Assembly (NCBI GenBank): GCA_964538435.1
Contig: CAZIDX010000001.1
Location: 393-64,392, forward strand
Reading direction: 5' to 3'
DNA: 64,000 nucleotides
From: an uncultured Gammaproteobacteria bacterium
GTDB lineage: Bacteria > Patescibacteriota > Patescibacteriia > UBA9934 > GWF2-40-263
This document shows, piece after piece, positions 1-33,344 of the stretch. A program made the position numbers and the translations under genes. Below the pieces are notes generated by a model. That model ran no database searches, was not told where the DNA came from, and worked only from the letters and a program-made list of their open reading frames with translations. Position 1 is the stretch's first letter, and each line of letters begins with the position of its first letter.

Positions 1-370
1 GCGCGAGCTCAAGAAGTACGTGGACGACAAGGGTATCGTCGTGGCTGACCTGATCAGCGCGCGCGAAGAGACCAAGATGAACGAGATGCTGGCCGGCCTC
101 TCCACCAACGAGGACCAGGTCGATCTCTCCGGGGTCTACGATGCTCGTGACCGGGCCCAGGCCCGCGCCGAGATCTCGAGCGCCATGGCTGGCACCGACA
201 CCGGTGCGATCGAGGACGAGCTGGACGCCGCTGCGGCCAGTGCCGGAGTCGCGGACAGTTTCTTCGCCGAACTCGACGCCGACGCCGCGGTCGAGGCCGG
301 GCCCACCAAGCCCGCGACCGACAAGGCCAAGGACTCCGGGTCCATCGACTTCGGTGCCCTGGACGACTAG
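1..370 (+). CDS. 5'-truncated CDS; acidic, Ala/Asp-rich C-terminal fragment of a hypothetical protein
   Basis: Reading frame is open from base 2 to the stop at 368-370 with no start in the window, so the gene begins upstream. GC-rich codon usage matches the downstream operon. Confidence 0.4.
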   Translation, partial: RELKKYVDDKGIVVADLISAREETKMNEMLAGLSTNEDQVDLSGVYDARDRAQARAEISSAMAGTDTGAIEDELDAAAASAGVADSFFAELDADAAVEAGPTKPATDKAKDSGSIDFGALDD

Positions 371-435
371 CGCGTCTGGAAACGTGATACGCGTGGAGTG
401 AGATTCAACCCTCACTCCACATTTCAACGCTCAGA

Positions 436-449
436 GTGGGGAAATCCAC
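436..449 (+). promoter_or_regulatory. Conserved leader hairpin, copy A (GTGG-GGAAAT-CCAC) upstream of the lipoprotein gene
   Basis: GGGGAAATCC core with complementary flanks; same motif at 3669-3684 and 5648-5663; followed by CGAGTGAAAC. Confidence 0.4.
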
Positions 450-552
450 AACGAGTGAAACCCAACCTGTCAATTCCAAGAAAAGGAAACTTGGGAAAGA
501 CTTCAAACCCTCGGTCGCGGGTAAGCGACTAACCCCGAGAAGGAGACACTCC

Positions 553-1731
553 ATGCGTCACTCCCTGATCACCCTGATGGCCTTCGGCCTGCTGATGTCC
601 GCGTGCAACGTCGAGGTCGAGAACCCGCCCGTCGCCAACGACTCCACGAACACCGCCGCGGCGCCCGCCGAGGTCCTGTTCACCCCGGTCAAGGCCGCCG
701 ACGGCACCCCGGACTTCAAGCTCGCCTGGAGCTTCTACACCTCCTGGTCCACCCTCGCCTCCGCCGACGCCTTCCACTACATCGACATCCGCGATGGCTG
801 GCAGGGCAAGTTCGAGGTCGAGCACGGCGTTGACGTGGTCCTGGAGCGCCTGGACTACGTGCCCAGCTTCGGTGTCTACGCCGCAGGCGCGGCCGACGCG
901 GTCACCATCACCAACACCGACGCCATGGCCGTGGCCTTCGAGCGCAAGAAGGGCGTGGGCGACGCCACCGTGGCCGTGTTCCCGACCTCGTGGTCCAACG
1001 GCGCGGACAAGATCCTGGTCGAGAAGGCCATCGGCAACTGGGCCGGCCTCGCCGGCGTGCCGGTCAAGGGCGCCGAGCTCTCCGTGACCCAGTACCTGTT
1101 CTGGCGCTGCAACGCCCTGAACGGCACCATGGACCAGTACGACAAGAGCTACGTGTTCGAGAACCTGGATCCCGTGACCGGCGCGCCCCTGTTCGCCGGC
1201 AAGCAGGATCCCAACCTGCAGGCCTTCGGTGGCTGGTCTCCCGAGACCTTCATCGTCCTGGACGGTCGCAACGGCGACGAGAACAGCGCCAACGACGTCA
1301 TCGACCTGTGCAACTCCGAGGCCCTGGACCGCTACGAGATCACCGACATGATGGTGGTCGGGCAGTCCGTGCTCGAGCGCCCGGGCGGCGTCGAGGGTGT
1401 CAAGGCCCTGGCCGCGGCCATGGATGCCATGGCCTCCCGCGTGGCCAGTCCCACCCAGCAGGGTGAGACCTACCGAGCCATCTCCGTCAACTTCAACGAC
1501 GTGGAGACCGGCTACATCCAGAAGGCCATGACCCTGAGCCCGCTGTCGGCCCCGTCCAAGGACCATGCGATCCTGGACTCGAACGAGATGCGTGCCAACA
1601 TGAAGTACGTGGTCGACTTCAGTCTCGAGCACGACCTGATCGGCGCGGCCAGCGACGTCCCGTACAGCTGGGGCACCAAGGCAGAGGCTCCGGACGCGGT
1701 CCTGCGCTTCGACACCTCGTTCGTCCACTAG
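553..1731 (+). CDS. Secreted lipoprotein of unknown function, possibly the substrate-binding component of the adjacent ABC transporter
   Basis: RBS GAAGGAGA before ATG at 553. N-terminus MRHSLITLMAFGLLMSAC has a signal peptide and a lipobox-like LMSAC. The ORF-track start at 436 would add a non-hydrophobic leader. Confidence 0.55.
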   Translation: MRHSLITLMAFGLLMSACNVEVENPPVANDSTNTAAAPAEVLFTPVKAADGTPDFKLAWSFYTSWSTLASADAFHYIDIRDGWQGKFEVEHGVDVVLERLDYVPSFGVYAAGAADAVTITNTDAMAVAFERKKGVGDATVAVFPTSWSNGADKILVEKAIGNWAGLAGVPVKGAELSVTQYLFWRCNALNGTMDQYDKSYVFENLDPVTGAPLFAGKQDPNLQAFGGWSPETFIVLDGRNGDENSANDVIDLCNSEALDRYEITDMMVVGQSVLERPGGVEGVKALAAAMDAMASRVASPTQQGETYRAISVNFNDVETGYIQKAMTLSPLSAPSKDHAILDSNEMRANMKYVVDFSLEHDLIGAASDVPYSWGTKAEAPDAVLRFDTSFVH

Positions 1732-1805
1732 GACGAGCTTCCTGATCGCACACGCGTGATCAACTCCTGCAGCTAGTTCGCTGGCTGCAGGCTTTCCACT
1801 GGAGG

Positions 1806-2684
1806 ATGAGACACTTCGTCTCGTCAACCAATGAGAAGAAAATGGAGGCTGAGATGCAGCGAGAAAACGGCTGGCGCAAAGCCTTGCGTCAGATGACTAC
1901 CATGCGGGAACCGCTTCCCAAGTGGCAGGAGCACATGTTCTTCGCGCTGGCGATCCTCACGATCCTCAGCGTGTACACCTACATCGCGTACTTCGGCGAC
2001 AACACCACCATCCCGACCTGGACCGAGCTCTTCAAGGGCTTTGGCAAGATGATCACGGACCCACGCAACGGGGAGCACATGATCTGGATGGACTCGATCG
2101 CCTCGTTCTCGCGACTGATCCCAGCTGTGGCAACCGCCTCGCTCATCGGGACCCTCATCGGTCTCTACACCGGTGTGTACGTTGCTGCGGACTCGTTCTT
2201 CAGCAAGATCCTGAGCTTCATGGGCAACATCGTCCCGAACGCTGCCATGGTGGTCTTCCTGACCCTGTTCGGATTTGCGTTCAAGATGTACAACGCCGCG
2301 ATCATCTTCGGTATCCTGCCCATCATCGCTACCCGGGTTCACCAGGCAGTCAGTGAGGTCCACAACGACCACATCTACAGCGCCAAGACCCTGGGAGCGT
2401 CGTCCAGCGAGATCATCTGGACCATTCTGCTTCGGCAGTGCATGCCTCAGATCATCGCTGCGGTTCGCGCATCGATCGGTCTGGCACTGATCCTGCTGGT
2501 CGCCACCGAGTGGGTGGCAGGCAGCTCCGGATTCGGGTACCGCTTCATGCGGCTCTACCGGTCCGCGCGCATGGATGTGATCTTCCCGTACCTGATGTAC
2601 CTCGGGTTCCTGGGAATCATCATCCAGCTCTTCTTCAACCAGATGCAGCGCCTGCTGTGTCCTTGGTACACCAAGGAGGACTAG
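1806..2684 (+). CDS. ABC transporter permease, NitT/TauT (SsuC/TauC-like) family
   Basis: Multi-TM protein with the binding-protein-dependent transport signature region (IIAAVRASIGLALILLVATEW...); start codon uncertain (1806, 1839 or later). Confidence 0.7.
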   Translation: MRHFVSSTNEKKMEAEMQRENGWRKALRQMTTMREPLPKWQEHMFFALAILTILSVYTYIAYFGDNTTIPTWTELFKGFGKMITDPRNGEHMIWMDSIASFSRLIPAVATASLIGTLIGLYTGVYVAADSFFSKILSFMGNIVPNAAMVVFLTLFGFAFKMYNAAIIFGILPIIATRVHQAVSEVHNDHIYSAKTLGASSSEIIWTILLRQCMPQIIAAVRASIGLALILLVATEWVAGSSGFGYRFMRLYRSARMDVIFPYLMYLGFLGIIIQLFFNQMQRLLCPWYTKED

Positions 2685-2686
2685 CC

Positions 2687-3601
2687 ATGACTACTCATGA
2701 GCAAGGCGCCTGCGTGGCACTCGAATGCCAGAACGTCAGCAAGTCCTTCGGAAGCACCCGAGTTCTGACCGACATCAACCTCGAGATCGGAACTGGGCAG
2801 ATTGTGGCCCTGGTCGGTGCGTCCGGCTGCGGCAAGTCCACGCTCCTCAACATGATCGTGGGCACACATCGGCCTTCCACGGGTCTGATCTACACGGTCC
2901 AGGACGGGTCCAAGACCCATGTGCAGACGCACGGTCCTGACCGCGGTATGGTCTACCAGAACTACAGCCTGTACCCGCACCTGACCGCGCTGAGGAACGT
3001 GACGCTCGGGCCCATGCTGCACGAGACGTCCATTCCTGGCCGCTGGCTGGGCTGGATCACGGGTTCGTGGCGCCAGCTGCGACGCGAGCATCAGGGCAAG
3101 GCCATGAAGCTCCTCACCGAGCTCGGTCTGGGTGAGCACGCTCACAAGTACCCGCACCAGCTCTCGGGTGGGAAGCGCCAGCGCGTGGCCATTGCCCGAT
3201 CCCTGATCATGGATCCCCAGATCCTGCTGCTCGACGAGCCCTTCGGAGCGCTCGACGAGGAAACGCGCAATGACGCGCGCCGCCTGTTGCTGGACCTCTA
3301 CGGCAAGGTGACCATCCTGATGGTGACCCACTCGCTCGAAGAGGCTGTGCACGTGGGTGACCGTGTGATCGCGCTTGGGAAGAACTGGAACGGCGGCGAG
3401 CGCGGTGCAACCGTGATCTACGACAAGCCGGCTCCGGTCTACATCTCCAGCGACCCGCTGCAGGACACCAAGATCATCGAGCAGGCCCAAGAGATCTTCC
3501 GGGCCATGTTCGAAAGCCCGAACCTCGACCCTACCGAGTACGTCACCTTCTGGGACGACGTCAAGGCCGGGCGGGTCGAAGGGGTCCTGGCATCGCGCTA
3601 G
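2687..3601 (+). CDS. ABC transporter ATP-binding protein (NitT/TauT family) with a C-terminal extension of about 50 aa
   Basis: RBS AAGGAGGA before ATG 2687; Walker A GASGCGKST, ABC signature LSGGKRQR, Walker B LLLDEPFGALD. The ORF-track start at 2438 overlaps the permease frame. Confidence 0.85.
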   Translation: MTTHEQGACVALECQNVSKSFGSTRVLTDINLEIGTGQIVALVGASGCGKSTLLNMIVGTHRPSTGLIYTVQDGSKTHVQTHGPDRGMVYQNYSLYPHLTALRNVTLGPMLHETSIPGRWLGWITGSWRQLRREHQGKAMKLLTELGLGEHAHKYPHQLSGGKRQRVAIARSLIMDPQILLLDEPFGALDEETRNDARRLLLDLYGKVTILMVTHSLEEAVHVGDRVIALGKNWNGGERGATVIYDKPAPVYISSDPLQDTKIIEQAQEIFRAMFESPNLDPTEYVTFWDDVKAGRVEGVLASR

Positions 3602-3668
3602 GACAAACAAAACGAGCTCAGCTCGAACGAGAGCGAGGCCCACAAAGCCTCGCTCTTTCTACATCAGA

Positions 3669-3684
3669 CTCGGGGAAATCCGAG
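3669..3684 (+). promoter_or_regulatory. Conserved leader hairpin, copy C (CTCGG-GGAAAT-CCGAG) about 35 nt upstream of the AAA+ gene start
   Basis: Same GGGGAAATCC core with covarying flanks; followed by CGATGACCAATCTACAA box shared with copy B. Confidence 0.45.
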
Positions 3685-3719
3685 AACGATGACCAATCTA
3701 CAAACGGAGGATAGACGCG

Positions 3720-5600
3720 ATGAAATTCCGTCATCTCGACTACGAGTTCCGACGTCAGACTGCCAGGATGTTCATGTCCGGGCAGTCGCAGAGCATCATT
3801 CTCCACGGCAACGTGGGGGACTACTTCTACCTGAAGCCCGAGCATTCAGGCAGGGATCCGAAGACCAACGAGATCCTGCACAAGGAAGGCAAGTACGTCA
3901 CCATGCTCGACTACTTGCGTCCGAGGTGGGGGAACGTGGCCAATACCATCCTGCTCGTCTACGAGCTGGGTGGCCCGATCCAGTTCATGTCCAAGGAAGA
4001 CCGCACGCTGTTGCGCGAAGCTTGGCTCAAGTTCCGGACAGAGGAGCTCTGGCAGGAGAACATGAAGGCCGACATCCTGGTCGATCCCAAGGAGGCCGAA
4101 GAACAGGTCGCGTCGCAGTTCAACGAGCTGCTCACTCGAGCCCACAAGGACCCGTCTCAGGCCCTGCGCATTCTGCGCAAGTTCTGCCAGATCTCCCGCT
4201 GGGAACACAAGGACAACCCGATCCGTAATCATCGGATCGTGATCCTGCTCGAGGATGCGGACCTGATCATTCCCGAAGGGGAGATCACGCGCATGAGCGA
4301 CAAGGATCGTCGGCGCATGGTGATCTGTCGGGAGTGGTTCACGGACCCTGGGTTCATGAACGGCGAAGACGCAGTGGTCATGATCGCTGAGTCTGCCAGC
4401 CAGATCAACGGTCGTGTCAGCAAGCTCCCGCAGGTTCTTCGTGTGGCTGTGAACGCTCCTCTGGAGCACGAGCGTGCACACTACATCCGATGGTTCAACG
4501 CCATGCAACCCAAGGATCGCAAGATCAAGCTCTGGGGCACACAGGAAGTACTGGCTGCCTACTCAGCAGGCCTGAACTTGCACGCCCTGCGCCAGATGCT
4601 CGTGGGTGCCACCTACGAGGATCGCAAGCTCGAGAAGAGCGACGTCACTGACCATGTCGAGGCGTACATCATCGCGCAGCTGGGTGAGGGTACGGTCGAG
4701 TTCCATCGGCCACACCACCACCTCAAGGATCTGGTCGGAAACGCAGACGTGATCCGCTTCCTGCGCGAGACCGTGATCCCGCGCATGCTCTCAACCGGCA
4801 AGAGCGCTCTCAGCGGCATTGCTGTCTCAGGCCCTATCGGTGCAGGCAAGACCTTCATCTTCGAGGCTGTGGCTGCCGAACTGGGTATGCCGGTCCTGAT
4901 CCTCAAGAACCTCCGCAGCAAGTGGTTCGGAGGTACGGATGTGATCATGGAGCGGCTCGAGCGCGTGCTCTACAGTCTGTCCAAGGTCGCGATCTTCGTG
5001 GACGAAGCCGACACCGTGTTCGGCGGAGTCGGACAGGACGTACACGCCACCGAGCGCAGGCTCACCGGCAAGATCCAGTCCTGGATGTCAGACCCGCGCC
5101 TCAAGGGCAAGGTGATCTGGATCCTGATGACGGCCCGCGTGCAGAACCTATCCGCAGACATCCGTCGCCCCGGGCGCGTTGGCAACCTGATCATCCCGAT
5201 CCTGGACCCGACCGGCGACGATCGCATTGCGTTCATCAACTGGGCGCTCAAGGGCTACTGCAAGCTTCCTAAGCAGGGGAGCGCAGAATGGATCCGAATC
5301 GAAGAAGCAACCAAGGGTTTCTCGGCCGCGCAGTTCGCTGCACTTCGAGAAGAGCTGGATGCTCAGGTCGAGCTCACAGGCAATGATCTCACCTTCAAGG
5401 ACGCTCTCGAGATCCTAGAAGAACAGCTCTCAGCTGACATCCAGACCGAGCGCCGAGTCCAGGAGCTCTACGCTCTGGTCAACTGCACACGCAAAAGCCT
5501 GCTGCCCGGCGGCAAGGACCTGTCGCGTGCGGATGTCGAGGAGCTGAAGAAGGGGTGGATGAAGGAGATCCACATGCACAAGCGCGCACTCGCCGCTTGA
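3720..5600 (+). CDS. Classic-clade AAA+ ATPase with a degenerate N-terminal AAA-like domain (two-domain architecture)
   Basis: RBS GGAGGA; C-terminal domain has Walker A GPIGAGKT, Walker B IFVDEAD, and an SRH-like RPGRVGN motif. N-terminal half has pseudo Walker A GQSQSIILHGNVGD and Walker B-like VILLEDAD. Confidence 0.75.
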   Translation: MKFRHLDYEFRRQTARMFMSGQSQSIILHGNVGDYFYLKPEHSGRDPKTNEILHKEGKYVTMLDYLRPRWGNVANTILLVYELGGPIQFMSKEDRTLLREAWLKFRTEELWQENMKADILVDPKEAEEQVASQFNELLTRAHKDPSQALRILRKFCQISRWEHKDNPIRNHRIVILLEDADLIIPEGEITRMSDKDRRRMVICREWFTDPGFMNGEDAVVMIAESASQINGRVSKLPQVLRVAVNAPLEHERAHYIRWFNAMQPKDRKIKLWGTQEVLAAYSAGLNLHALRQMLVGATYEDRKLEKSDVTDHVEAYIIAQLGEGTVEFHRPHHHLKDLVGNADVIRFLRETVIPRMLSTGKSALSGIAVSGPIGAGKTFIFEAVAAELGMPVLILKNLRSKWFGGTDVIMERLERVLYSLSKVAIFVDEADTVFGGVGQDVHATERRLTGKIQSWMSDPRLKGKVIWILMTARVQNLSADIRRPGRVGNLIIPILDPTGDDRIAFINWALKGYCKLPKQGSAEWIRIEEATKGFSAAQFAALREELDAQVELTGNDLTFKDALEILEEQLSADIQTERRVQELYALVNCTRKSLLPGGKDLSRADVEELKKGWMKEIHMHKRALAA

Positions 5601-5647
5601 ACACCAGGGTTCGTCAACGACTGACGGACCCATTTCAACACGCAGCG

Positions 5648-5663
5648 CAGGGGAAATCCTGCA
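5648..5663 (+). promoter_or_regulatory. Conserved leader hairpin, copy B (GCAGG-GGAAAT-CCTGC) about 35 nt upstream of the next gene
   Basis: Third copy of the GGGGAAATCC core with compensatory flank changes; followed by GTGTGACCAACTACCA box. Confidence 0.45.
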
Positions 5664-5696
5664 CGTGTGACCAACTACCAGGACCGGAGTGAAACA

Positions 5697-6809
5697 ATGC
5701 CCACCATGCACGCCCGCCTGTGCCGCACGATTCTTCGAAACGCCAGGAAGGCGGGGAAGTTCTACGAGTACGACGATGAGAGCTCGCTCGACGAGCCCAT
5801 CATGTTCTTCTTCCAAGAGTCCGTGGAAGGTCTGGTGCTCTTCATTGTGTACCGCACACTTCCATGCGTCTTCAACGGATGCACCTTCTGCCGTCTGCCT
5901 GGTACATCCACGCTGCGCGAGGTGAACTTCCGTCACGTAATGAATCAGACCAGGTACGTGATGACCCACCCGGACGTGGTGCCGCGCCTGGACGAGATCC
6001 AGAAGCTGATCATCTCCAACCAAGGCTCCATCCTGGACCAACGCACGTTCGACCAGCTCGCGCTCATGGACCTGATCGCTCAGGGTGAGTACAACTTCCC
6101 GAACATGGCTAGCATGTGCCTGGAGACCCGCATCTGCTACGTCGAGGATGAAGAGATTGTGCTACTCGGCCATGCCATGGCTGGCGGTGACACCGTGACT
6201 GTGCTCGAGTTCGGGATCGGGGTCGAGGCCTACAACGACTCAATCCGCAACTCCAGGCTCGGCAAGGGGATGCATCTGCGCGAGAAGCCCAACAGCCTCG
6301 AGCGACTGGCCGAACGGCTCTCGCTCTTGTGTGAGGACATGCTACGCTTCCGCATCAAGTGCTACTTCCTGCAGAAGCCCCACGAGAGCATGACCGACGA
6401 AGAGGCGGTCCAGGACGTCAAGGACATGATCGACTTCATGTCTGGTCTGGTCGCCAAGCATGCGATCCGGATGAACCTCCATCTCAACCCCACCTTCGCG
6501 GCCAAGGAAACCAAGCTCGAGACCGAATTCAAGGCCGGCAGGTTCACACCGCCACGCCTGAGTGATGTCGCGCGCGCGGTTCTCTACGCCGAGGACAAGG
6601 GGGTGAGTGTGTTTGTCGGGCTCGACGACGAGGGGCTTGCCTGCGAAGGAGGTTCCTTCCTGCAGCCTGGCAACGAGCGCATGGTTGCGGCCCTGGATCA
6701 GTTCAACCGTACGCAAGACTTCGATGAGCTGCGCGCAAGGCTGGATGCCTACCTTGGCGATCCGCACTACAATCACGAGACCGACCTGATCGAGGTTCCA
6801 ACGGCCTGA
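5697..6809 (+). CDS. Hypothetical 370-aa protein with a CX4CX2C cysteine cluster (CVFNGCTFC)
   Basis: RBS GGAG before ATG 5697 (ORF track starts at GTG 5667). GC-rich codon usage; sits immediately downstream of the AAA+ gene and shares its leader motif. No family recognised. Confidence 0.55.
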   Translation: MPTMHARLCRTILRNARKAGKFYEYDDESSLDEPIMFFFQESVEGLVLFIVYRTLPCVFNGCTFCRLPGTSTLREVNFRHVMNQTRYVMTHPDVVPRLDEIQKLIISNQGSILDQRTFDQLALMDLIAQGEYNFPNMASMCLETRICYVEDEEIVLLGHAMAGGDTVTVLEFGIGVEAYNDSIRNSRLGKGMHLREKPNSLERLAERLSLLCEDMLRFRIKCYFLQKPHESMTDEEAVQDVKDMIDFMSGLVAKHAIRMNLHLNPTFAAKETKLETEFKAGRFTPPRLSDVARAVLYAEDKGVSVFVGLDDEGLACEGGSFLQPGNERMVAALDQFNRTQDFDELRARLDAYLGDPHYNHETDLIEVPTA

Positions 6810-6837
6810 TCAGCACGTCTCAACGCGCAAACGCAAA

Positions 6838-6868
6838 CGCAGAGCTCGCCTGAGCCCTGCGTTTTCTA
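6838..6868 (+). terminator. Rho-independent terminator of the GC-rich operon
   Basis: CGCAGAG...CCCTGCG stem followed by TTTTCT, then the conserved TTTTCTAATTG linker. Confidence 0.6.
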
Positions 6869-6876
6869 ATTGAACA

Positions 6877-6922
6877 GGTGGATACCATTTAAGTGCCGAT
6901 CGGACCTTATATGGTATCCACC
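6877..6922. repeat. REP-like palindromic repeat, copy 1 (GGTGGATACCATTTAAG-TGCCGATCGGAC-CTTATATGGTATCCACC)
   Basis: 46-bp inverted repeat with a CCGATCGG core; near-identical copies at 31145-31188 and 33693-33735, with outer arms covarying (GGTGG/CCACC vs GGGG/CCCC). Confidence 0.65.
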
Positions 6923-6928
6923 GAGAAT

Positions 6929-7441
6929 CTATTTAATTGTATACAAATAGAGATCAAGTTGCCCCGCGGCTTTGCTTATCTCTTCAGCCTCCCATTCAGG
7001 GATCGGCCAGACATAGCTGATAACCCTAGTTCCAGGTTTGAGCTCTGAGCGAAGCTTTGACTCAATCTTTTCATATGTCTCAGGCATCAGAAACATGTAC
7101 ACCGCATCATATTCATTCAAGTTCTTACCAAACACATTCCCAAATCGATATCGAGCTCGAGAACGCGTTGCTGATGCTTGCAGGGCTGCAACAAGATATT
7201 GCAGTAGAGAAAGCTCAACGCCATGCACTGCGACTCCGGGATTCTTCTGAGCCAAATGTCGACATACACGCCCATTCCCACACCCAAGCTCAACGAACTT
7301 CTCACCATCCTTAAGCTTGAGTAATTTATGTATCCGATCAAGATCTTGCTTCCTGGTAGGCACCCAAGGCGCCCCAGAAGCCGCTGCATACGCAAGCGAG
7401 GCCAGGAGAACCAAGCCAATCCCAGCAAAAACATATAACAT
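6929..7441 (-). CDS. Class I SAM-dependent methyltransferase, small, with an N-terminal TM segment
   Basis: Motif I VELGCGNGRV; about 170 aa. Confidence 0.65.
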   Translation of the reverse strand: MLYVFAGIGLVLLASLAYAAASGAPWVPTRKQDLDRIHKLLKLKDGEKFVELGCGNGRVCRHLAQKNPGVAVHGVELSLLQYLVAALQASATRSRARYRFGNVFGKNLNEYDAVYMFLMPETYEKIESKLRSELKPGTRVISYVWPIPEWEAEEISKAAGQLDLYLYTIK

Positions 7442-7703
7442 ATGGATTGATTATAGCACTGAAACGAATCATCGCCACCTTACTCGACACAAACGTGAGG
7501 ATTTGGAAACGCTATCAAGGCCGCAGGGGACAATTTTTGTGAGAATCCCGCTTGCGGGATCGAACAAAGAATTCGTCCCTGAGGCTACTCTGACAAAACC
7601 CCCACCCGCAGCCAAAAAGAAGACACCCTCCGTTCCAGTCCCCAAGCAAGGGAAAGGGAAGGAGGGTGCTTCGTCGCGACGTTTCGTGCGTCGCGTCAGG
7701 GAG

Positions 7704-8480
7704 CTAGGCCTGTGCCGGCTCCTGGTTGTTCACCACGAGCTGCAGGCCGCTGCCGCGCAGCAGATCACTCATGCTGGCGCTGCCGCCGCTGTCCTGGTGA
7801 ACGACATCCTCACCATCGGCCAGGTCGGCATTGGTCAGGATCTCGCGCACGCGCATGTCGAGGTTGATGCCCTTGCCGCTGACCGGGTTCCAGTCCAGGC
7901 TGCGGGTCGCGAAGGTGCGGGACTCGCCGCCGAACATGAGCGGAGCCGGCCGCGAGTACATCATGCCAGCGGGATCCTTGAGCACGATGCGCTGCTTGGG
8001 CTTGGGATCACCTTCCTCGAGCGGGAAGACATCCAGGAAGAACATGTAGTTCTTCCAGACCTTGAAGTGGGGATCCTGGCGCGTGTCCGCGTCCTTGATG
8101 TGCACGGTGCGCACACCGACCTTGACCCGGCCAGCGACGATCAGGGCGTCATCGCCCTTGGGGCCGCGCAGGTGCACGCTGATGCCGCTGCAGCGGTCGC
8201 CCAGGCGCACGTGATGGTACTCGCCGATGGGGGAGTCGGTCACGGGCGTGTGCTCCGCACCCTTGGGGATCTCGATGATGCAGGGGCCCAGGTCCTCGGC
8301 GTAGAACAGTTCCTGGATCGTGGGGTCGTTGCCCTTGTGTCGGGGCGGCTTCTCGATGGTGGCGATGTGACCCACGCCGTCGGTCTCGACGTTCATCGCT
8401 CGCAGCTCGGCGAGGAAGTCCTCCCAGTGCGCAAGAACGTTCAGTCCTCCGATCGTTCGGACGGTCATGTCGGACATCAT
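7704..8480 (-). CDS. Hypothetical protein, GC-rich gene
   Basis: 258-aa ORF with ordinary amino-acid composition; the overlapping + ORF 7317-8726 looks like an antisense shadow. A TTGACA-N17-TATTTT promoter lies on the minus strand near 8560-8600. Confidence 0.55.
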   Translation of the reverse strand: MMSDMTVRTIGGLNVLAHWEDFLAELRAMNVETDGVGHIATIEKPPRHKGNDPTIQELFYAEDLGPCIIEIPKGAEHTPVTDSPIGEYHHVRLGDRCSGISVHLRGPKGDDALIVAGRVKVGVRTVHIKDADTRQDPHFKVWKNYMFFLDVFPLEEGDPKPKQRIVLKDPAGMMYSRPAPLMFGGESRTFATRSLDWNPVSGKGINLDMRVREILTNADLADGEDVVHQDSGGSASMSDLLRGSGLQLVVNNQEPAQA

Positions 8481-8664
8481 TCACTCCATTGGTTGACGCG
8501 GCCAAGTCGTGGCGGCGTACAGGATTTCCGCTTTAAAAACGGTTCTGACGCAGCGGTCAGACGACGAAAAATACCACAAAATGGTACTTTTGTCAACCTC
8601 TGGAGCCAAAAAACACACAAAAATGGATGCTTTTTATGGATTCGACCCTGGGGAAATCTCTTTG

Positions 8665-8692
8665 TTTACAAAAAAAATACCTTGTGTATAAT
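8665..8692 (+). promoter_or_regulatory. Sigma70-type promoter (TTTACA-N16-TGTGTATAAT, extended -10) for the 8734 gene
   Basis: Read directly from the sequence; a GGGGAAATC motif sits just upstream at 8650-8658. Confidence 0.55.
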
Positions 8693-8733
8693 CCGTTTCG
8701 AAGCATTCATTTCTATTAATCCTTAGGAGGAGT

Positions 8734-9177
8734 ATGGATATCCAAACACTTTTTAAACTCGAGATCGGTGAAACCGTTCGAGTCTCCAACGAGCCACTCA
8801 CGCTCATTGGACGATCTACAATCACATTTGATGGCGGTGACGAGCTTGTCTGGCTCTTTGATGAAGACGAGCGCATTCTCTCAGTCGCACCAGAGGAAGA
8901 AGAGCTTTTCTTGTTTGAAAAACTTGATGAAGAAATCGAGCCAGACGAAGAGGGGATTCTTTACCAAGGAAAAGAGTACGAATTCCACTACAAAGACACA
9001 GGTGTGGTGACAGAGGTAGAGGGCGACGTCATAACCGAGCCAGACGACACCTACTTGTACATGGACTACGAAGCAAAGGATGGGGGTGTGCTGCGCATTG
9101 TCAGCAACGAGAATACAGGTGAAGCAGGTGCCTATGTTGGCCGCACGGTTTCAGAAGATGATCTAAACGAGCTGTAG
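8734..9177 (+). CDS. Small acidic cytoplasmic protein, possibly DUF4178-like
   Basis: RBS AGGAGGAG; 147 aa; family assignment is from memory only. Confidence 0.45.
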   Translation: MDIQTLFKLEIGETVRVSNEPLTLIGRSTITFDGGDELVWLFDEDERILSVAPEEEELFLFEKLDEEIEPDEEGILYQGKEYEFHYKDTGVVTEVEGDVITEPDDTYLYMDYEAKDGGVLRIVSNENTGEAGAYVGRTVSEDDLNEL

Positions 9178-9202
9178 GTTTCAGACAAACGAAAATCTTG
9201 CT

Positions 9203-9236
9203 AAAATAGAGATGGCAAAATGCCGTCTCTATTTTG
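9203..9236 (+). terminator. Rho-independent terminator (13-bp stem AAATAGAGATGGC/GCCGTCTCTATTT + T-run)
   Basis: Near-perfect hairpin followed by TTTTG; the ORF-track start at 9212 lies inside this hairpin. Confidence 0.7.
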
Positions 9237-9244
9237 ATATTCTC

Positions 9245-10450
9245 ATGAAAAAAGCGATCTCATTCATCGTTCTGGGTGTGGTGGTTGTGCTTTCTGTCAC
9301 AGCAGCCACATATATCGTGCTCATGCAGCTGGATCCTGATCTTGAAGTACGTAAAATGATGATAGCAATGGCCAGCCTCGAGACAGTGAGGCAAGACTCA
9401 GGCTTTAGCTGGACGCGCGGAGAAGGCAGTGAGCGCATAAACACAACACTCTACACAACAGGCCAGATAAGCATTGATGATGAGGCTAATCTCCAGCACG
9501 CAACACAGTTTCGGGTTGTGCACATGGGGGCGGATAATTCGTACTCAGACCTCTCAGGCGAATTCCGAATGCTAGAGGATGCAAGCTACCTCACATACAC
9601 ACCTCCAGGCCCAAGCGTAGACGGCGTGTCGTTTGATCAAGAGCAAACCTGGATTGCATTCGCTCAAGATGAGCTGCTCTCCTGGGGGGCTGTGCTACCG
9701 GGTCTTGAGCTTCCAATCGCTTTGAGTGAACAGAAAATATCCTGGACCCCAGACGTATTCGCGCGCCTCCGTTACCTGCTTTCCTCAACAGATGTTTTCA
9801 TCGCCCAAGCAAGTGGACTCACACAGATCGTAGGGAATGCAAACACAAGAATAATTGATGCAACGTTTGACCCAGATGTTGTAGAAGCCTTCCTGCGTGA
9901 CATTGTGCGCGCAAAGCAAGGGCGAGACCCAACAGAAGACGAACGAGAGCTTGTGGCCAAGCAGGCCGAGCAGATTAAGCGATTAACATTCAGGTTCTGG
10001 ATCGGCACACAGGATCATTATCTTTATAAACTACAAGCCGCTGGCGCCTTCTCAGATCCAGAAACAAATGACCTAATCCCAGTTGACATCAAGGTAGAGT
10101 TTGAGGACTTCAACGAACCATTCGACATTGACGAGCCCAATGACCCACTCCTTTTTGAGCAAGTACTCAGGTCAGTGTTTGCTGACCTGCCAGATTCAGA
10201 AGCGCTCACACTGGGAGGGGTAAACAAGGTGCTAGTAACAGATGAAACAGCAAGGCTGCCAGTAGAGGAGGTGGAGGAATCAACCGACCAAGATGAGGAT
10301 GGGCTTAGCAATGTTCTTGAGGCGTTCTACGGCACCAATCCAAACGACCCTGACACAGATGGTGATGGGGTAACAGACGGCGACGAGGTGCGCAAAGGGC
10401 ATAATCCACGAGGAACCGGGTCATTATTCGGATTCGGGCTAGAGAGATAG
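9245..10450 (+). CDS. Membrane-anchored secreted protein with C-terminal acidic Ca-binding-like repeats (DxDxDGxxDxDE)
   Basis: N-terminal TM segment (ISFIVLGVVVVLSV); C-terminus has TDQDEDGLSN...NPNDPDTDGDGVTDGDE, resembling thrombospondin-type-3-like motifs. Start moved to ATG 9245, downstream of the terminator. Confidence 0.5.
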   Translation: MKKAISFIVLGVVVVLSVTAATYIVLMQLDPDLEVRKMMIAMASLETVRQDSGFSWTRGEGSERINTTLYTTGQISIDDEANLQHATQFRVVHMGADNSYSDLSGEFRMLEDASYLTYTPPGPSVDGVSFDQEQTWIAFAQDELLSWGAVLPGLELPIALSEQKISWTPDVFARLRYLLSSTDVFIAQASGLTQIVGNANTRIIDATFDPDVVEAFLRDIVRAKQGRDPTEDERELVAKQAEQIKRLTFRFWIGTQDHYLYKLQAAGAFSDPETNDLIPVDIKVEFEDFNEPFDIDEPNDPLLFEQVLRSVFADLPDSEALTLGGVNKVLVTDETARLPVEEVEESTDQDEDGLSNVLEAFYGTNPNDPDTDGDGVTDGDEVRKGHNPRGTGSLFGFGLER

Positions 10451-10451
10451 A

Positions 10452-23607: not shown

Positions 23608-26430
<2,823 letters not shown>

Positions 26431-29354: not shown

Positions 29355-29843
29355 TAGCGCCTCCAGTCTTGATTCAGGTATTGACCTTAAGTCTCTTGCA
29401 TAAAAAAGTCAAAAGGAAAACTCAGCCGAGTGGCTGAGTCCGTGACGTTACGCTCCAAGGGTAAGACCCCCGGCAGCGAAATCTGAGGCAATCACTTCAA
29501 TCAGGTTGAGTACTGATAGAAGTGACGTCTCAAGCTGGCCCGCAAGGAGCGGGAAGAAGAGTTGAAGGACCAGCAATGTCATCACGAGCATAAAGAGGCT
29601 TCGCATATGGATCGTTGGTTAGATCCAGGGGCCGCAGAGCTGACTAAGCCCTGAGTCGGATGACGTTTGCATGGTCACCTCATCCCTTGGGGTAATCCGC
29701 CGAAACTCAGCACATCGCTCCAAGAGACAAGAGACATTTGTGGGACATACGATAATAGCAAGAAAACCGTCTTTTGTCAACCCAAAAGATGTCCATGAAT
29801 AACAAAAATGCTCAATCGAAAAACCCCACCGGAGTGAGGTCTG

Positions 29844-30037
29844 CTAGCCAACGCCGTCTTGCGTCAGGCCAGTGTCGTAGGAGAGGTCTTCGAGCTCGCT
29901 GGCAGACTCCTGCGCTTGATGCCAGTGTTTGAAATGAGTATGCATAGAGCGAGCGAAGTACCAGGGGAGTAGCGCGACCACTGCCGCTGCCACCAGGAAA
30001 TCCCAGTTCTTGCGAACCCAGGCGAGTTTAGTGTTCA
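29844..30037 (-). CDS. Small membrane protein (64 aa) overlapping the 3' end of the pilin gene
   Basis: Internal ATG at 30037 gives MNTKLAWVRKNWDFLVAAAVVALLPWYF...; a terminator hairpin lies just downstream near 29813-29843. Confidence 0.35.
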
Positions 30038-30426
30038 TGCGCAAGCACCCTGATTGTCGCCGAACAATACTTCTCGCCATTGAGTCTGTGGCAACACACC
30101 AGGAACGGCTGCTCCTTCTCACGCACATCGAATGCGCGCACGGTGTAGCCTGCCTGCTCACAGCGCTTGCATCCAAGCTGCTTTGCCTCCTCAGTGGTCC
30201 AGGTGTGAGCAACCCAAGCGTCGAAGTAGCCGACTGCCTCCACCGCTTCGATGGCATCCTGCTCCGTGATCTTTCTCGTGTTCACAACTGTCTGCTCACC
30301 ATCCTCAAGCCCCATGGCACGCTCGCGCATGGCAATGAAGCTCGGGATCGCAATAGCAGCAATGATGCCGATCATGGCGATGACGACCATCAGCTCGATC
30401 AGGGTGAATGCGCGCTCGCTACTCAT
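30028..30426 (-). CDS. Type IV pilin-like / pseudopilin protein (prepilin-type N-terminal domain)
   Basis: MSSERA|FTLIELMVVIAMIGIIAAIAIP class-III signal; C-terminal cysteine pairs including FLVCC. Confidence 0.7.
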   Translation of the reverse strand: MSSERAFTLIELMVVIAMIGIIAAIAIPSFIAMRERAMGLEDGEQTVVNTRKITEQDAIEAVEAVGYFDAWVAHTWTTEEAKQLGCKRCEQAGYTVRAFDVREKEQPFLVCCHRLNGEKYCSATIRVLAHEH

Positions 30427-30698: not shown

Positions 30699-31106
30699 TC
30701 ATCTCTTGAAAAGGATGATGCAAGCCTTGTGTGTGCCAGTGCCTCGGCAGCACACTAGGAAGTTGTGCTCCTCCTCGTGAGAGTCCGAGGCTGTGACTTC
30801 GTACGCACGCAGGTCACGACACGCACAATCACTGTTCCTGAGGTCATGACCCCAGTCCTTGGTTATGATCGGGGAGAGATACCCCGCGTTCGTCATGGTC
30901 ACGAGTGCATCACCAGCCGTGGGATAGCGATCTTCCGTGCTCAGTCCATGATTGACATTGTCGTTCTTGGGTCTCTCTTGCATCGCAATGAAGTTCGGGA
31001 TCACGATCGCTGCCAGCAGGCCCACGATTGCACACACGACCATCAACTCGATCAGCGTCAAGCCGCTACGGCTCTTGTTCATGATTCCCTCCAGGGTCAG
31101 AAGCAA
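30699..31106 (-). CDS. Type IV pilin-like protein (prepilin peptidase site KSRSG|LTLIELMVV)
   Basis: Canonical G|LTLIELMVV prepilin N-terminus; C-terminal Cys pairs and FLVCC shared with the paralog. Confidence 0.7.
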   Translation of the reverse strand: MLLTLEGIMNKSRSGLTLIELMVVCAIVGLLAAIVIPNFIAMQERPKNDNVNHGLSTEDRYPTAGDALVTMTNAGYLSPIITKDWGHDLRNSDCACRDLRAYEVTASDSHEEEHNFLVCCRGTGTHKACIILFKR

Positions 31107-31112: not shown

Positions 31113-31141
31113 ATAATAGTCAAAAAACCATCATTTGTCAA
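31113..31141 (-). promoter_or_regulatory. Consensus sigma70 promoter TTGACA-N17-TATTAT driving the pilin cluster
   Basis: Minus-strand reading: ggTTGACAaatgatggttttttgacTATTATtgtc. Confidence 0.65.
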
Positions 31142-31218
31142 CCAGGGGATACCATATAAGTGCCGATCGGACCTTATATGGTATCCCCAAAGAGTATTCA
31201 GCCCAATTAGAAAACCCG
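31116..31218. repeat. 103-bp direct repeat, copy 1 (promoter + 44-bp palindrome + CAATTAGAAAACCC)
   Basis: Near-identical to 33663-33765; contains the palindrome 31145-31188 (GGGGATACCATATAAG-TGCCGATCGGAC-CTTATATGGTATCCCC). Confidence 0.8.
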
Positions 31219-31300
31219 TCTACACTCAACTGAGTATTGACGGGTCGTGACCGTTAATGCACTTCAGACACCGGACCAGCTGGTCCGCAGCTCAAGTACT

Positions 31301-31585
31301 CTAACGCTCTTGTCGTTCGTCCAGGAGCTGTTGCTGCTCCTTCATGCGGTCGTTGAGCTCCTCGAGCTCTTCGAGCACAGCCGGTCCGTTGGCGAACCAG
31401 CGCACGAGCTGCAGGCGCATCTCCGTGCTGCAGTGGCGCAGCAGGTACTCGGCAACAGCCATGGCGATGCCGCGCTTGATCAGCTCGCGGAAGATCAGCA
31501 GGACCGCGATGATGCCGATCAGGCTGATGACCTCGCTGAGGATGCTGATGATCTGAGCGGTTCCGATGAGTCCTTCTTCCATCAC
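31301..31585 (-). CDS. Small membrane protein (94 aa) downstream of the SPFH gene
   Basis: Hydrophobic core IISILSEVISLIGIIAVLLIF; a rho-independent terminator follows on the minus strand at 31206-31247. Confidence 0.45.
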   Translation of the reverse strand: MMEEGLIGTAQIISILSEVISLIGIIAVLLIFRELIKRGIAMAVAEYLLRHCSTEMRLQLVRWFANGPAVLEELEELNDRMKEQQQLLDERQER

Positions 31586-32805
31586 CGACCTCCTTCTTCG
31601 ATGCTCATGTCCAGACCCAGGTCACGGGCGGTCTGCACCGTGAGGAGCTGGATCATGTCCGTGGCCGCGGAGCCAGACACGGTGGGGTCACCACCCATCA
31701 TGACTTCCGGCACCCAGCGCTGCTTGCCGATCTCGGCAGCGTACAGACCGTTGACCTGGACCCACGCTGCGAGCTTCTGCTCGAGCGCGCCGTCGGCCTT
31801 CATGGTCAGACGCTTGCGCTCGGCATCGCCTTCACCGCGCAAGATCTGCTCGGCCTTGTAGAACTCGGCTGCTTCCATCTCGAGCTGCGCGACTTCCTTC
31901 TTCTGCTCGGCCTCGGTGACAGCCTTGGCCTTGAGGACCTCCTGCTGCCACTTGGCACGGGCGGCCTCGGCCTCACCTTGCTTGGCTACGGTCTTGGCCT
32001 GCTGGTCGGCCTTGAGCGCATCCGCGATCGCGGACTGGACTTCCATGGTCGCGTCCTGCTGACGCTGGATCTGCTCCTCGACCTTGGGGTCGTAGTCGAT
32101 GCTGTTGACCGTGAAGTTGAAGGCGCGGATCTGGAACTCGGTCAAGGGAGAGTCTTCCTGGCGCATGTAGCCGCCACTCTCGTTCTCCACGAGTTCCACG
32201 AGGTTGATCACTCGTTCTTCTCCGGTGAGCGAATCCGTCTCCTTCACGCTTCGCGTGCGGGTGCGGTACACACCGTTGCTGACCTGATCACCGACGATCT
32301 GGATCAGCTCGGTGCGTCGGTCCGCGTAGCTCTCCTTGGAGCTCATGAGCGGGCCAGACATGAAGACCGCCTTGTTCACCACCTGTCCGAGCAGGTCTCG
32401 CTCGATCGCGTGCTGCGAACCGTACTTGGTGTGCAGCTTGCGCAGAGCTTCCTCGTTGAGCGGAAGCTCGAAGCGGAGCGAACCTGAGATAGTGGCAGTA
32501 CCACCATCGTTGAAGCGAACAGGGATCGACTGATCCGTGCCGTCGCCAGTCTCAGGGTCCTTGGTGAACCAGTACTGCGAGGACTTCAGGTAGGTCTCGG
32601 TGCCACCCCAACGGGTGAAGTAGAGACCAGGCTCGGTCCAGAAGTGCAGCTCGCCATCGAACGGGTCCTGTTCGATCACGATCTCGTCTGCACCGACGCG
32701 TTCCCACGCCGTGAAGATCGAGATGGTGCCTCCCAGGATCGCCAGTGCGGTGAGGATTCCCACCACAGCCTTGACGACGGAGCCAATCGGGTTTCTGCGT
32801 GCCAT
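31582..32805 (-). CDS. SPFH/band-7 (flotillin/YqiK-like) membrane protein
   Basis: N-terminal TM helix, SPFH core, long Ala/Glu/Lys-rich coiled-coil (flotillin-like) tail; GC-rich codon usage. Confidence 0.75.
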   Translation of the reverse strand: MARRNPIGSVVKAVVGILTALAILGGTISIFTAWERVGADEIVIEQDPFDGELHFWTEPGLYFTRWGGTETYLKSSQYWFTKDPETGDGTDQSIPVRFNDGGTATISGSLRFELPLNEEALRKLHTKYGSQHAIERDLLGQVVNKAVFMSGPLMSSKESYADRRTELIQIVGDQVSNGVYRTRTRSVKETDSLTGEERVINLVELVENESGGYMRQEDSPLTEFQIRAFNFTVNSIDYDPKVEEQIQRQQDATMEVQSAIADALKADQQAKTVAKQGEAEAARAKWQQEVLKAKAVTEAEQKKEVAQLEMEAAEFYKAEQILRGEGDAERKRLTMKADGALEQKLAAWVQVNGLYAAEIGKQRWVPEVMMGGDPTVSGSAATDMIQLLTVQTARDLGLDMSIEEGGR

Positions 32806-32826
32806 CCTTTCTCCCTATGGAAAGGG

Positions 32827-33171
32827 TTAGTGGTCTGTTGACCGGGGTTGCTGCTTGCGGGAACGACTCCCACGAGCAGAAGTTCCAGGAACCCTGCTGC
32901 GCGCACGGTGCGCACGAGCCTGTTCCTGATGGATGTCATCGAGGAGTTCCTCGATCTCGGCTTCCAAGCGCGCGACCTCAGCTTCAGTATGAGCATCAGC
33001 CAGGTCCAGCCTCATCTGCTCGAGACGTTCCTGCGGGGTCAGGGGCTTGGCAGCCCTACGTCGAAGGATCGGAAAGATCCGTTCGTTCCGAAACACGGGG
33101 AGCGTGATCTGTGTCACGACCCCCACCACGAGTAGAACAAATGCCGCGAAAAGCAGGAATTTGATCAGCAT
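32827..33171 (-). CDS. Membrane-anchored coiled-coil protein (109 aa), first gene of the SPFH module
   Basis: RBS GGAGG before ATG 33171; MLIKFLLFAAFVLLVVGVV TM helix followed by a charged helical tail. Confidence 0.5.
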   Translation of the reverse strand: MLIKFLLFAAFVLLVVGVVTQITLPVFRNERIFPILRRRAAKPLTPQERLEQMRLDLADAHTEAEVARLEAEIEELLDDIHQEQARAHRARSRVPGTSARGSRSRKQQPRSTDH

Positions 33172-33344
33172 CGTAGCCTCCTGGGCGAGGGGACACAACC
33201 GAAAAACCTGAGGTTCTGAAGGTTTTCGGAAGTGTCGAACTTAGTACTTTAAAAGAAGTTTGTCAAGCCAATTTGACGACCCGCAATCATTGGGGGTAGA
33301 GTTCAATTAGTTAAGAGGGAAGTCATTTCATAGAAAGGTAGGTT

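Follow-up and report, generated by a model that had tools for sequence, protein, structure and literature searches.

GC-rich modules in an Uhrbacteria genome segment as the probable visible part of a native two-class gene architecture

Discrete classes of genes defined by codon usage were reportedly described in Escherichia coli by Medigue et al. in 1991, and Karlin is said to have distinguished 'predicted highly expressed' from 'alien' genes. For acquired DNA, Lawrence and Ochman reportedly argued in 1997 that amelioration alters GC content at third codon positions (GC3) first and at first and second positions (GC1 and GC2) last, and GC-biased gene conversion in bacteria is said to have been put forward by Lassalle et al. 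in 2015. Several lineages, among them Bacteroidota, Cyanobacteria, Actinobacteria and Deinococcus, make little use of Shine-Dalgarno (SD) motifs or have leaderless mRNAs. Here, these systems are compared with a 64,000-nt stretch of contig CAZIDX010000001.1 (assembly GCA_964538435.1), termed the window, in which four GC-rich modules interrupt a background of intermediate GC and had been taken in an initial annotation for horizontally acquired islands. More probably, at roughly 55%, this Uhrbacteria lineage has a native gene architecture of two interleaved classes, with high GC3 (class H) and low GC3 (class L), and the modules are its visible part.

The window resembles the schemes of Medigue and Karlin in having discrete synonymous-codon classes in one genome, one of them with strong bias and strong SD motifs. 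It differs in that the biased, SD-led class holds nearly half of the genes, with no chaperones or ribosomal proteins seen among them, and in that a whole candidate class has kept the same membership at divergences that are saturated. In contrast to the AT-rich 'alien' class of E. coli, this class is GC-rich and its preferred codons all end in G or C. Shared with ameliorating islands are the atypical GC, the distinct oligonucleotide signature, the sharp borders and, at one module, the direct repeats on either side, but the genes of the window lie at the same sites in distant relatives, their GC3 is undecayed with GC1 and GC2 native-like, and the modules are accompanied neither by mobility genes, as far as found, nor by a tRNA insertion site. 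As in SD-poor lineages, most housekeeping genes are SD-less and a -10 box immediately precedes the start codon of some. A canonical SD motif is nevertheless kept by a sizeable minority of the genes, and this minority coincides with a separate codon dialect. The long-lived differences in GC3 beyond mutation bias recall both GC-biased gene conversion and vertebrate isochores. The unit here, however, is the open reading frame (ORF), the effect depends on codon family, and its size (0.3-0.55 in GC3) is far above that reported for gene conversion in bacteria.

Windowed GC content placed the four blocks at 0.59-0.67 and the background at 0.45-0.55. GC was 0.612 at 1-6810 (module 1), 0.650 at 7650-8480 (module 2), 0.612 at 23600-26430 (module 3) and 0.610 at 31250-33200 (module 4), compared with 0.485-0.507 between the four segments and 0.495 at 33201-64000. 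The standard deviation of GC in 1-kb windows was 0.049, ∼3-fold the 0.016 expected of a homogeneous sequence. The segments that had been picked out by eye are thus real, and computation bears out their difference from the background (0.61-0.65 against ∼0.50). Third codon positions within them are dominated by G and C, as had been noted: GC3 was 0.77-0.91 for genes within the four segments and 0.43-0.55 for ftsI, murF, recQ, dnaK, tgt and glyA, all of which except murF had been described as lower in GC. The identities of these genes were taken from Pfam and from the Pfam tags of the pipeline on L001, a 5.9-kb Logan contig from the independent SRR8146440 assembly that is 100% identical to window 8814-14714. 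The long antisense shadow ORFs reported over the GC-rich segments are also present. They comprise 529-1827 (minus strand, 432 aa), opposite the real gene at 436-1731 (plus), 2681-3643 (minus, 320 aa), 7317-8726 (plus, 469 aa), opposite 7704-8480 (minus), and 31247-31861 and 31978-32487 (both plus), opposite the SPFH gene of module 4; the true coding strand was set by Pfam matches and orthologs.

GC3 was bimodal over 48 genes, with a Bayesian information criterion of -54.6 for a two-component mixture and -40.2 for one component; the components lay at 0.49 ± 0.04 (54% of genes) and 0.75 ± 0.09 (46%). As a list of GC-rich pieces the four segments held, but not as a complete one: about 10 further genes had GC3 values of 0.69-0.82, at 13817-14683, 15526-16140, 21255-22142, 30028-30426, 30699-31106, 53326-53895, 58182-58616, 59484-60410, 60618-61637 and 61674-62285. 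Two interleaved gene classes are a better description than a backbone with islands. Class H makes up ∼45% of window genes and includes the ABC transporter with its binding protein, an AAA ATPase, SPFH, the pilins, a MopE-repeat lipoprotein, IMPase, Ham1 and several unknowns; many of its products are exported or belong to the envelope. Among the members of class L are ftsI, murF, recQ, dnaK, grpE, dnaJ, clpB, dnaB, tgt, glyA and folD and, in the relative L035, the genes for ribosomal proteins L9 and L27.

Between classes H and L, respectively, GC1 was 0.602 and 0.595, GC2 0.411 and 0.374, and GC3 0.787 and 0.491, with glycine, alanine, arginine and proline (GARP) residues at 0.258 and 0.249. 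Given that GC1, GC2 and GARP content are nearly equal, the class difference is almost entirely synonymous. GC3 was flat inside genes and changed at ORF borders, which argues against regional mutation bias or conversion tracts; a methyltransferase gene at 0.44 has neighbours at 0.81 and 0.88, and folD (0.42) adjoins a gene at 0.72. The opening 10 codons of class H genes had a GC3 of 0.58 compared with 0.74-0.79 beyond, and this lower value fits native tuning of start regions.

The nearest relatives by FtsI are metagenome-assembled genomes (MAGs) of Candidatus Uhrbacteria (candidate phyla radiation, CPR; Patescibacteria), at 64-74% identity. In L002 (GCA_900089805.1, contig FLOH01000142.1, 202 kb), gene order is that of the window, the AAA ATPase homolog is 69% identical, and GC drops from 0.58-0.65 to 0.44-0.52 at the matching place. 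The same gene order and alternation of high and low GC are common to the independent assemblies L002, L003, L010, L038 (of the Uhrbacteria GW2011_GWF2_39_13 type) and L040. The conserved order runs NMT1-like, VWA, OmpA, two unknown genes, binding protein, permease, ATPase and AAA ATPase, followed by a variable gene, the methyltransferase, a slot gene, DUF4178, TSP3, FtsI and MurF; in relatives the GC-rich block reaches at least 10 kb further upstream. L001 crosses the junction from murF to GC-rich sequence (13630-13817). Given that the same junctions occur in independent assemblies of other samples and species, and in L001, chimerism is excluded for modules 1 and 2. The earlier conclusion that the pieces belong to one genome is supported, although its decisive basis is the conserved gene order and GC steps in independent assemblies and not the border palindrome on which it had been built.

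Class membership is a property of the gene that is vertically inherited, bounded by the ORF and persistent after silent sites have been randomised. Block and backbone GC3 were 0.79-0.91 and 0.47-0.53 in the window, 0.73-0.92 and 0.41-0.53 in L002, 0.70-0.98 and 0.35-0.43 in L040, 0.41-0.73 and 0.30-0.39 in L038, and 0.67-0.85 and 0.53-0.59 in L010. The binding protein gene had the top GC3 in all five genomes, reaching 0.98 within the 0.37 backbone of L040. The methyltransferase gene stayed low (0.44 in the window, 0.50 in L002, 0.46 in L003, 0.40 in L040 and 0.33 in L038) between neighbours that were always at 0.7-0.9. GC3 ranks agreed between L040 and L038 (Spearman 0.90, n = 15; class H alone 0.88, n = 10), and GC3 excess correlated between orthologs with r = 0.80 over 141 non-independent pairs drawn from 165 conserved ORFs at 18 Uhrbacteria loci. 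Mean excess by family was ∼0 for FtsI, MurF, TSP3, DUF4178 (14-16 Uhrbacteria loci for these four) and the methyltransferase, +0.24 for the AAA ATPase and +0.38 for the binding protein. Even away from the conserved order, SPFH orthologs in L035 and L042 had GC3 values of 0.54 and 0.52 compared with 0.27-0.38 for their neighbours.

The silent sites concerned are saturated. Identity at four-fold sites between the window and L038 was 0.266 for class H (random expectation 0.262) and 0.265 for class L (0.263); at this saturation, GC at four-fold sites in the window and L038 was 0.80 and 0.53 for class H, and 0.41 and 0.32 for class L. That a GC3 excess is kept at saturated silent sites indicates a gene-specific force that maintains class H, rather than slowly ameliorating relics. 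Residual four-fold similarity was about equal in classes H and L (0.122 and 0.147 between the window and L040; 0.046 and 0.083 between L040 and L038), so both classes have diverged over the same time, and the ranks of identity across genomes were concordant between classes. The standard deviation of 1-kb GC was 0.044-0.075 in block-bearing Uhrbacteria loci and 0.02-0.03 in loci from other CPR groups (Moranbacteria, Kerfeldbacteria and Buchananbacteria), which are homogeneous.

These data dispose of most of the island interpretation. Modules 1 and 2, far from being absent from the same site in relatives, are syntenic in L002, L003, L010, L038 and L040, with orthologs at the same positions across Uhrbacteria. 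Synonymous divergence of class H equals that of the backbone, GC1, GC2 and amino acid composition are backbone-like, and the GC3 excess, which would be expected to decay first, persists while GC1 and GC2 are already host-like. Genes imported from a donor of ∼65% GC would be expected to have GC-rich first and second positions and to lose the GC3 signal before these. Flanking direct repeats were seen at module 4 only (a 104-nt unit, 98% identical). No integrase or transposase Pfam family was found in the genes of or beside the modules, and a PADLOC scan of ten class H proteins gave weak generic AAA matches only, so the modules are not defence islands. The compositional observation itself is right, and broader than it was stated; the island interpretation placed on it is mostly wrong.

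The high GC3 of class H is actively maintained and is coupled with SD-led initiation. With start sites taken from a public pipeline, an SD motif (AGGAG or GGAGG, 5-10 nt before the start) preceded 22 of 22 class H genes and 2 of 25 class L genes in L035, L038 and L040 (p = 2e-11). Given the AT-rich leaders of L038, this split is not a by-product of GC content. Among the 165 conserved ORFs, SD-preceded starts rose from 16% at a GC3 excess below 0.08 to 62% at 0.08-0.2 and 69% above 0.2, while an internal control for the scan stayed at 6-7% in all three bins. In the window, an unbiased scan found SD motifs at 14 of 20 class H and 5 of 26 class L starts; counts from hand-chosen starts are circular and were left out of the evidence. 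At the 61%-GC Uhrbacteria locus L043 (ENA ERZ27300037, k141_1266906), GC3 is 0.70-0.91 in every one of the 15 genes, among them uvrABC and a sigma factor gene. This locus establishes that uniformly GC-rich Uhrbacteria exist, and it keeps the SD split, the IMPase gene having an SD motif and uvrABC and the sigma factor gene having none. With the SD split kept and the GC3 gap gone, SD class is the more stable trait, the GC3 gap arising where the genome equilibrium is lower.

A TATAAT-like box 4-12 nt before the start was present at 8 of 48 low-class starts and at 0 of 39 high-class starts. The genes that carry it, all of low GC3 and without an SD motif, are at 6929-7441 (minus), 9212, 22463 and 36803 in the window, 13116 in L040, and 4630, 11386 and 17653 in L035. 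The position of these boxes suggests that some class L mRNAs may be leaderless. In a published survey (PMC9297842), no anti-SD sequence could be detected in about half of the 16S rRNAs of Parcubacteria; a literature search on Uhrbacteria, Patescibacteria and CPR surfaced just this anti-SD observation and no report of a link between SD use and codon class.

The preference behind the GC3 difference is not uniform. The mean natural log odds ratio of codons ending in G or C (S) over those ending in A or T (W), class H against class L, was 1.36 in the window, 2.15 in L040 and 1.05 in L038. By codon family it was 3.0 for Phe, ∼2 for Lys, Ile, Pro and Ser-TCN, and 0.5-1.0 for Cys, Arg-CGN, Glu, Gly, Ala and Asp; values for Phe, Lys, Ile and Pro reach 2-4.5. 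The W-to-S shift is heterogeneous among families (Q = 185, df 20) in a pattern common to these genomes (r = 0.69-0.75), and this unevenness argues against a uniform push towards GC. Both G and C are elevated at class H third positions. Class L, by contrast, resembles an unselected state: its third positions are used evenly (A 0.25, T 0.26, G 0.23, C 0.26), its four-fold GC (0.42, 0.35 and 0.32) follows the spacer GC of each genome, and its codon choices follow the dinucleotide biases of the genome. Some unusual dinucleotide values are common to classes H and L (TA 0.41 and 0.48; CA/TG 1.22 in both; CC/GG 0.81 in both). Dedicated tRNAs for G- or C-ending codons are kept in the window and its relatives. 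The sole tRNA of the window, tRNA-Glu(CUC) at 18441-18515 (plus), reads GAG only and lies away from the module borders; it also occurs in L009, L010, L012 and L014, near ftsI-murF-recQ, with the L010 copy (16124-16198) 94% identical in DNA. tRNA-Pro(GGG) and tRNA-Pro(CGG) are present in L008 and L031.

We infer that the maintaining force is most likely translation-linked selection. Under such a model, the strength of codon selection would scale with the frequency at which an mRNA is initiated: SD-led mRNAs would be initiated often, so that the fast-decoded codons of tRNAs with G or C at position 34 (G34/C34) would pay off, and SD-less mRNAs would be initiated rarely, so that their silent sites would drift at mutational equilibrium. 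Some class H genes may once have been foreign, but long before the sampled lineages split. A further step, which we regard as unlikely though worth stating, is that the classes mark two translation regimes, an SD-led, G/C-ending set (envelope, transport, pilus and lineage-specific genes) and an SD-less, partly leaderless housekeeping core, with global shifting between the sets; the split would then be a regulatory footprint and not a mark of gene origin. In that case the cell could shift resources between, for example, host-attached growth and a free or starved state, with anti-SD availability or the supply of C34/G34 tRNAs as possible levers.

Several observations weigh against translation-linked selection in a native class H. 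Spacers within H blocks are ∼0.1 richer in GC than other spacers, which hints at a component acting at the DNA level, and the dinucleotide distance δ* between classes H and L is 0.124 compared with 0.025 within L. That all preferred codons of class H end in G or C also resembles plain GC pressure. An Akashi-type test of whether conserved residues are enriched in G/C-ending codons gave no consistent signal over eight genomes, with Mantel-Haenszel odds ratios of 0.81-1.45, of which only that for L038 was significant (z = 2.9). Markers of high expression lie in the low class (dnaK 0.50, grpE 0.43 and clpB 0.50 in GC3), and in L035 the genes for L9 and L27, which lack SD motifs, had GC3 values of 0.32 and 0.35 in a backbone of 0.27-0.33. 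In L043 the SD-less uvrABC and sigma factor genes are as GC3-rich as the SD-led ones, so the GC3 split depends on lineage. Relatives were sampled as ∼20-kb pieces, and synteny lends little or no support for modules 3 and 4.

Four other accounts were weighed against the native two-class architecture. Class H genes might have been imported long ago from SD-using, GC-rich bacteria into an early Uhrbacteria ancestor and have kept their ribosome-binding sites and codon style, with some slots still being replaced laterally; we consider this possible but doubtful. The tetranucleotide comparison that the initial annotation had proposed does separate the classes (r = 0.61 between them, 0.90-0.95 within), in line with the value of δ*, and SD use separates class H from native genes. 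Homologs of the AAA ATPase at 47-51% identity in Hydrogenedentota, Planctomycetota, Deltaproteobacteria, Acidobacteriota, Verrucomicrobia, Sumerlaeia and other groups are as close as those of distant Uhrbacteria. Together with these signatures, a lateral history is compatible with the variable slot between the methyltransferase and DUF4178, occupied by either of two unrelated families, with the alternation of a radical-SAM-like gene and a 2OG-Fe oxygenase gene after the AAA ATPase, with the three contexts of SPFH and with the 104-nt direct repeats around module 4. Ancient import leaves unexplained, however, why GC3 has been maintained after silent sites became saturated, as in the binding protein gene of L040, and native GC1 and GC2 with a non-native GC3 are the reverse of the order reported for amelioration. 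The Hydrogenedentota AAA gene has different neighbours, so movement of the H block as a transferable operon was rejected; homologs of the IMPase-like family are found exclusively in Patescibacteria, and no mobility or defence genes were found. Recent islands, or a chimera in which a GC-rich and a mid-GC organism were assembled together, would account for the sharp GC steps and the distinct signatures, and Logan assemblies made from the same samples give module 4 as a 2550-bp contig of its own. Nevertheless, the junctions recur in independent assemblies (with L001 100% identical across one of them), the orthologs in relatives have equal synonymous divergence and no integrase or transposase was found, so that this account is barely credible overall and is essentially excluded for modules 1 and 2.

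A process acting on DNA rather than translation could be GC-biased gene conversion, if class H genes, for instance envelope or host-interaction genes under diversifying selection, recombined more between strains and biased repair drove them towards GC. The elevation of both G and C at third positions, the GC-richer H-block spacers, the many envelope or exported products and the variable slots nearby are in its favour, but it fits poorly with switches at ORF borders, with a 0.5-kb low-GC3 methyltransferase gene kept between high-GC3 genes in five genomes, with a shift that is uneven by codon family and barely followed by GC1 and GC2, and with an SPFH excess kept at three locations while the equally fast TSP3 and DUF4178 stay low. 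It also offers no reason for the SD association, and we judge it improbable. Still less probable is the opposite polarity, in which the genome equilibrium is GC-rich, class H sits at it and the SD-less or leaderless class L is held AT-richer, for instance to keep the mRNA unstructured. Weak mRNA structure is a known requirement of SD-independent initiation, and the 61%-GC Uhrbacteria locus is uniform at a GC3 of 0.7-0.9. Against this, class L four-fold GC tracks the spacers, class L codons follow dinucleotide biases, and GC3 is low along whole genes and not at the start only; moreover, the GC3-rich, SD-less uvrABC and sigma factor genes of L043 imply that SD-less genes have no intrinsic need for AT-richness. 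Fast protein evolution was rejected as a correlate of high GC3 given that TSP3 and DUF4178 diverge as fast yet are low, and transcription-associated deamination was rejected given that class L third positions lack strand asymmetry. Selection at the transcript level, on mRNA stability, is weakened by switches at the level of the ORF, such as that between folD and its downstream neighbour.

GC-rich patches in MAGs are routinely flagged as contamination, chimera or recent transfer and then trimmed; the patches described here are none of these. If the two-class architecture holds genome-wide, it would provide a concrete, testable case of long-term silent-site maintenance at the level of the ORF in bacteria, and SD-dependent and SD-independent or leaderless initiation would coexist as two gene sets in Patescibacteria, with a bearing on the reported loss of anti-SD sequences in Parcubacteria. 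Composition-based binning, contamination screens and detectors of horizontal transfer would misjudge such genomes. Gene calling would also be affected, given that GC-rich genes yield long antisense ORFs, and shadow ORFs have been called in L002. At L002 5404-9243, public gene calls are on the wrong strand (for example 6464-7681, minus, 405 aa, with no Pfam match), and tblastn assigns the genes for binding protein, permease and ATPase to the plus strand; such wrong-strand calls over the GC-rich block indicate that GC3-rich genes mislead the gene caller.

Module 1 (1-6810, plus; GC3 0.79-0.91) is the 3' part of a longer conserved block that is cut by the window start. It contains the C-terminal end of an upstream gene (20-370) and the genes for a substrate-binding lipoprotein (ORF 436-1731, probable start 553), an ABC permease (1854-2684), an ABC ATPase (2687-3601), the 626-aa AAA ATPase (3720-5600) and a RaSEA-like radical-SAM-type protein (5697-6809, ORF from 5667) that matches TIGR01210 below cutoff and has the motif C-x4-C-x2-C. 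All of these are on the plus strand, the module has Pfam and NCBIfam matches, and its gene starts are preceded by SD motifs. Sources name the AAA ATPase family just 'ATP-binding protein', and its function appears to be uncharacterised; an exact look-up found no identical protein on record. The low-GC3 methyltransferase that follows (6929-7441, minus) has no SD motif, and a TATAAT lies 8 nt before its ATG. Compared with L004, L010, L038 and L040, its orientation is reversed in the window, L002 and L003.

Module 2 is a single gene of unknown function (7704-8480, minus; GC 0.65, GC3 0.88) in the variable slot between the methyltransferase and DUF4178 (window 7442-8733). Orthologs with a GC3 excess of +0.37 to +0.53 are present in L002 (76% identity), L003 and L040, and a different gene family, with a mean excess of +0.39, takes the slot in L004, L005, L007, L008, L010, L025, L031 and L038. 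The slot is thus held by two apparently unrelated families of unknown function with mean GC3 excesses of +0.43 and +0.39; slot genes lie at 7285-8136 in L004, 7269-7949 in L010, 12740-13414 in L038 and 13746-14558 in L040. At a second variable site, after the AAA ATPase, the RaSEA-like gene of the window, L002 and L003 is replaced in L040 by a 2-oxoglutarate-Fe (2OG-Fe) oxygenase gene of family PF10014 (12035-13057). Downstream of the slot, DUF4178, the TSP3-repeat protein, FtsI and MurF (8734-13629, plus) have GC3 values of 0.47-0.53, with an SD motif at DUF4178 only.

Beyond these lie a putatively coding ORF with a GC3 of 0.71 (13817-14683, plus), which has no homolog and no SD motif and for which the pipeline called an antisense ORF on L001, and a high-class membrane protein gene with a GC3 of 0.82 (15526-16140, plus). 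A GNAT-domain gene (21255-22142, minus; Pfam Acetyltransf_1/7) has a GC3 of 0.76 and GGGAG 6 nt before its ATG. Module 3 is a secreted lipoprotein gene (23608-26430, plus; GC3 0.77) with 10 MopE-type Cys/Asp-rich repeats (PF11617, 10 stretches, E = 8e-90); in the DNA, repeats recur every 195-219 nt. The ORF has a low-GC 5' extension (23353-23607) that is probably non-coding, and the SD motif AAGGAG lies ahead of the ATG at 23608. Two type IV pilin-like genes with N_methyl motifs, SD motifs and GC3 values of 0.70-0.71 are at 30028-30426 and 30699-31082 (ORF to 31106), both on the minus strand. Module 4 (31301-33198, minus; GC 0.61) encodes three proteins, one of 94 aa (GC3 0.84), one of the SPFH/band-7 type (31582-32805; 0.81) and one of 114-123 aa from the membrane (0.63); the SPFH orthologs of L035 and L042 are 75-76% identical and lie in other contexts, which makes three with that of the window.

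A second interleaved region, beyond the range described in the initial annotation and with a class pattern read from the window alone, extends over 58182-62285. High-GC3 genes of unknown function (58182-58616, minus, and 59484-60410, plus; both 0.72) flank folD (58613-59446, minus; GC3 0.42, by Pfam), and are followed by the high-GC3 genes for an IMPase-like protein (60618-61541, minus, ORF to 61637; 0.73, by Pfam) and Ham1 (61674-62285, plus; 0.69), next to which is the low-class glyA (0.46). The 2 kb between dnaK and dnaJ (41343-43344) contain only ORFs that are small or overlap one another (42621-43211, minus, and 42630-43235, plus); these have no Pfam matches and are of doubtful coding status.

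The palindrome that had been described at module borders, GGGGATACCATATAAGTGCCGATCGGACCTTATATGGTATCCCC, is real, near-perfect and 44-46 nt long, with three copies in 64 kb where none is expected by chance. It was found at one border of module 1 and on both sides of module 4, but not at 7650, 8480, 23600 or 26430. Copy A (6877-6922) lies between the convergent ORFs 5667-6809 (plus) and 6929-7441 (minus); copies B (31145-31188) and C (33693-33734) lie within 104-nt cassettes that are 98% identical to each other. One cassette (31115-31218, minus) is directly upstream of the pilin gene at 30699-31082, and the other (33662-33765, minus) is upstream of a ∼460-nt ORF-poor stretch and module 4. In the order of the minus strand, each has a hairpin followed by a TTGACA -35 box and a plausible -10 box; from this arrangement the cassette looks like a terminator-plus-promoter unit rather than an att site, and not like a general mark of module borders. 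The palindrome resembles repetitive extragenic palindromic (REP) sequences and bacterial interspersed mosaic elements (BIME) in being intergenic and, once, in lying between convergent genes, but it differs in its low copy number, in the hairpin-plus-promoter cassette that holds two of the copies, and in that no RAYT-type gene was seen. None was found in 43 related loci except the window's own contig L032, and the palindrome is weak evidence for a single replicon. L032 is the separate 2550-bp Logan contig of module 4 (window 31189-33738); it ends within both 104-nt cassettes, which is what an assembler yields at such a repeat, and the placement of module 4 therefore hinges on repeat resolution and is tentative.

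An Rfam scan of the window returned the tRNA only, with no match for the palindrome or the 460-nt ORF-free leader. This stretch (33199-33661, minus) contains no convincing ORF and is possibly a long leader or RNA. A tandem array of ∼5 copies of the 14-nt unit CCAACGTCTGACTT occupies 14685-14756 in a long spacer, and L001 ends inside it at 14714. The motif TTTTGTCAACC, whose reverse complement GGTTGACAAAA contains TTGACA, occurs at 8570-8598, 29754-29782 and 43273-43301 and also within 31115-31218 and 33662-33765, and probably represents a -35 promoter context that minus-strand genes have in common.

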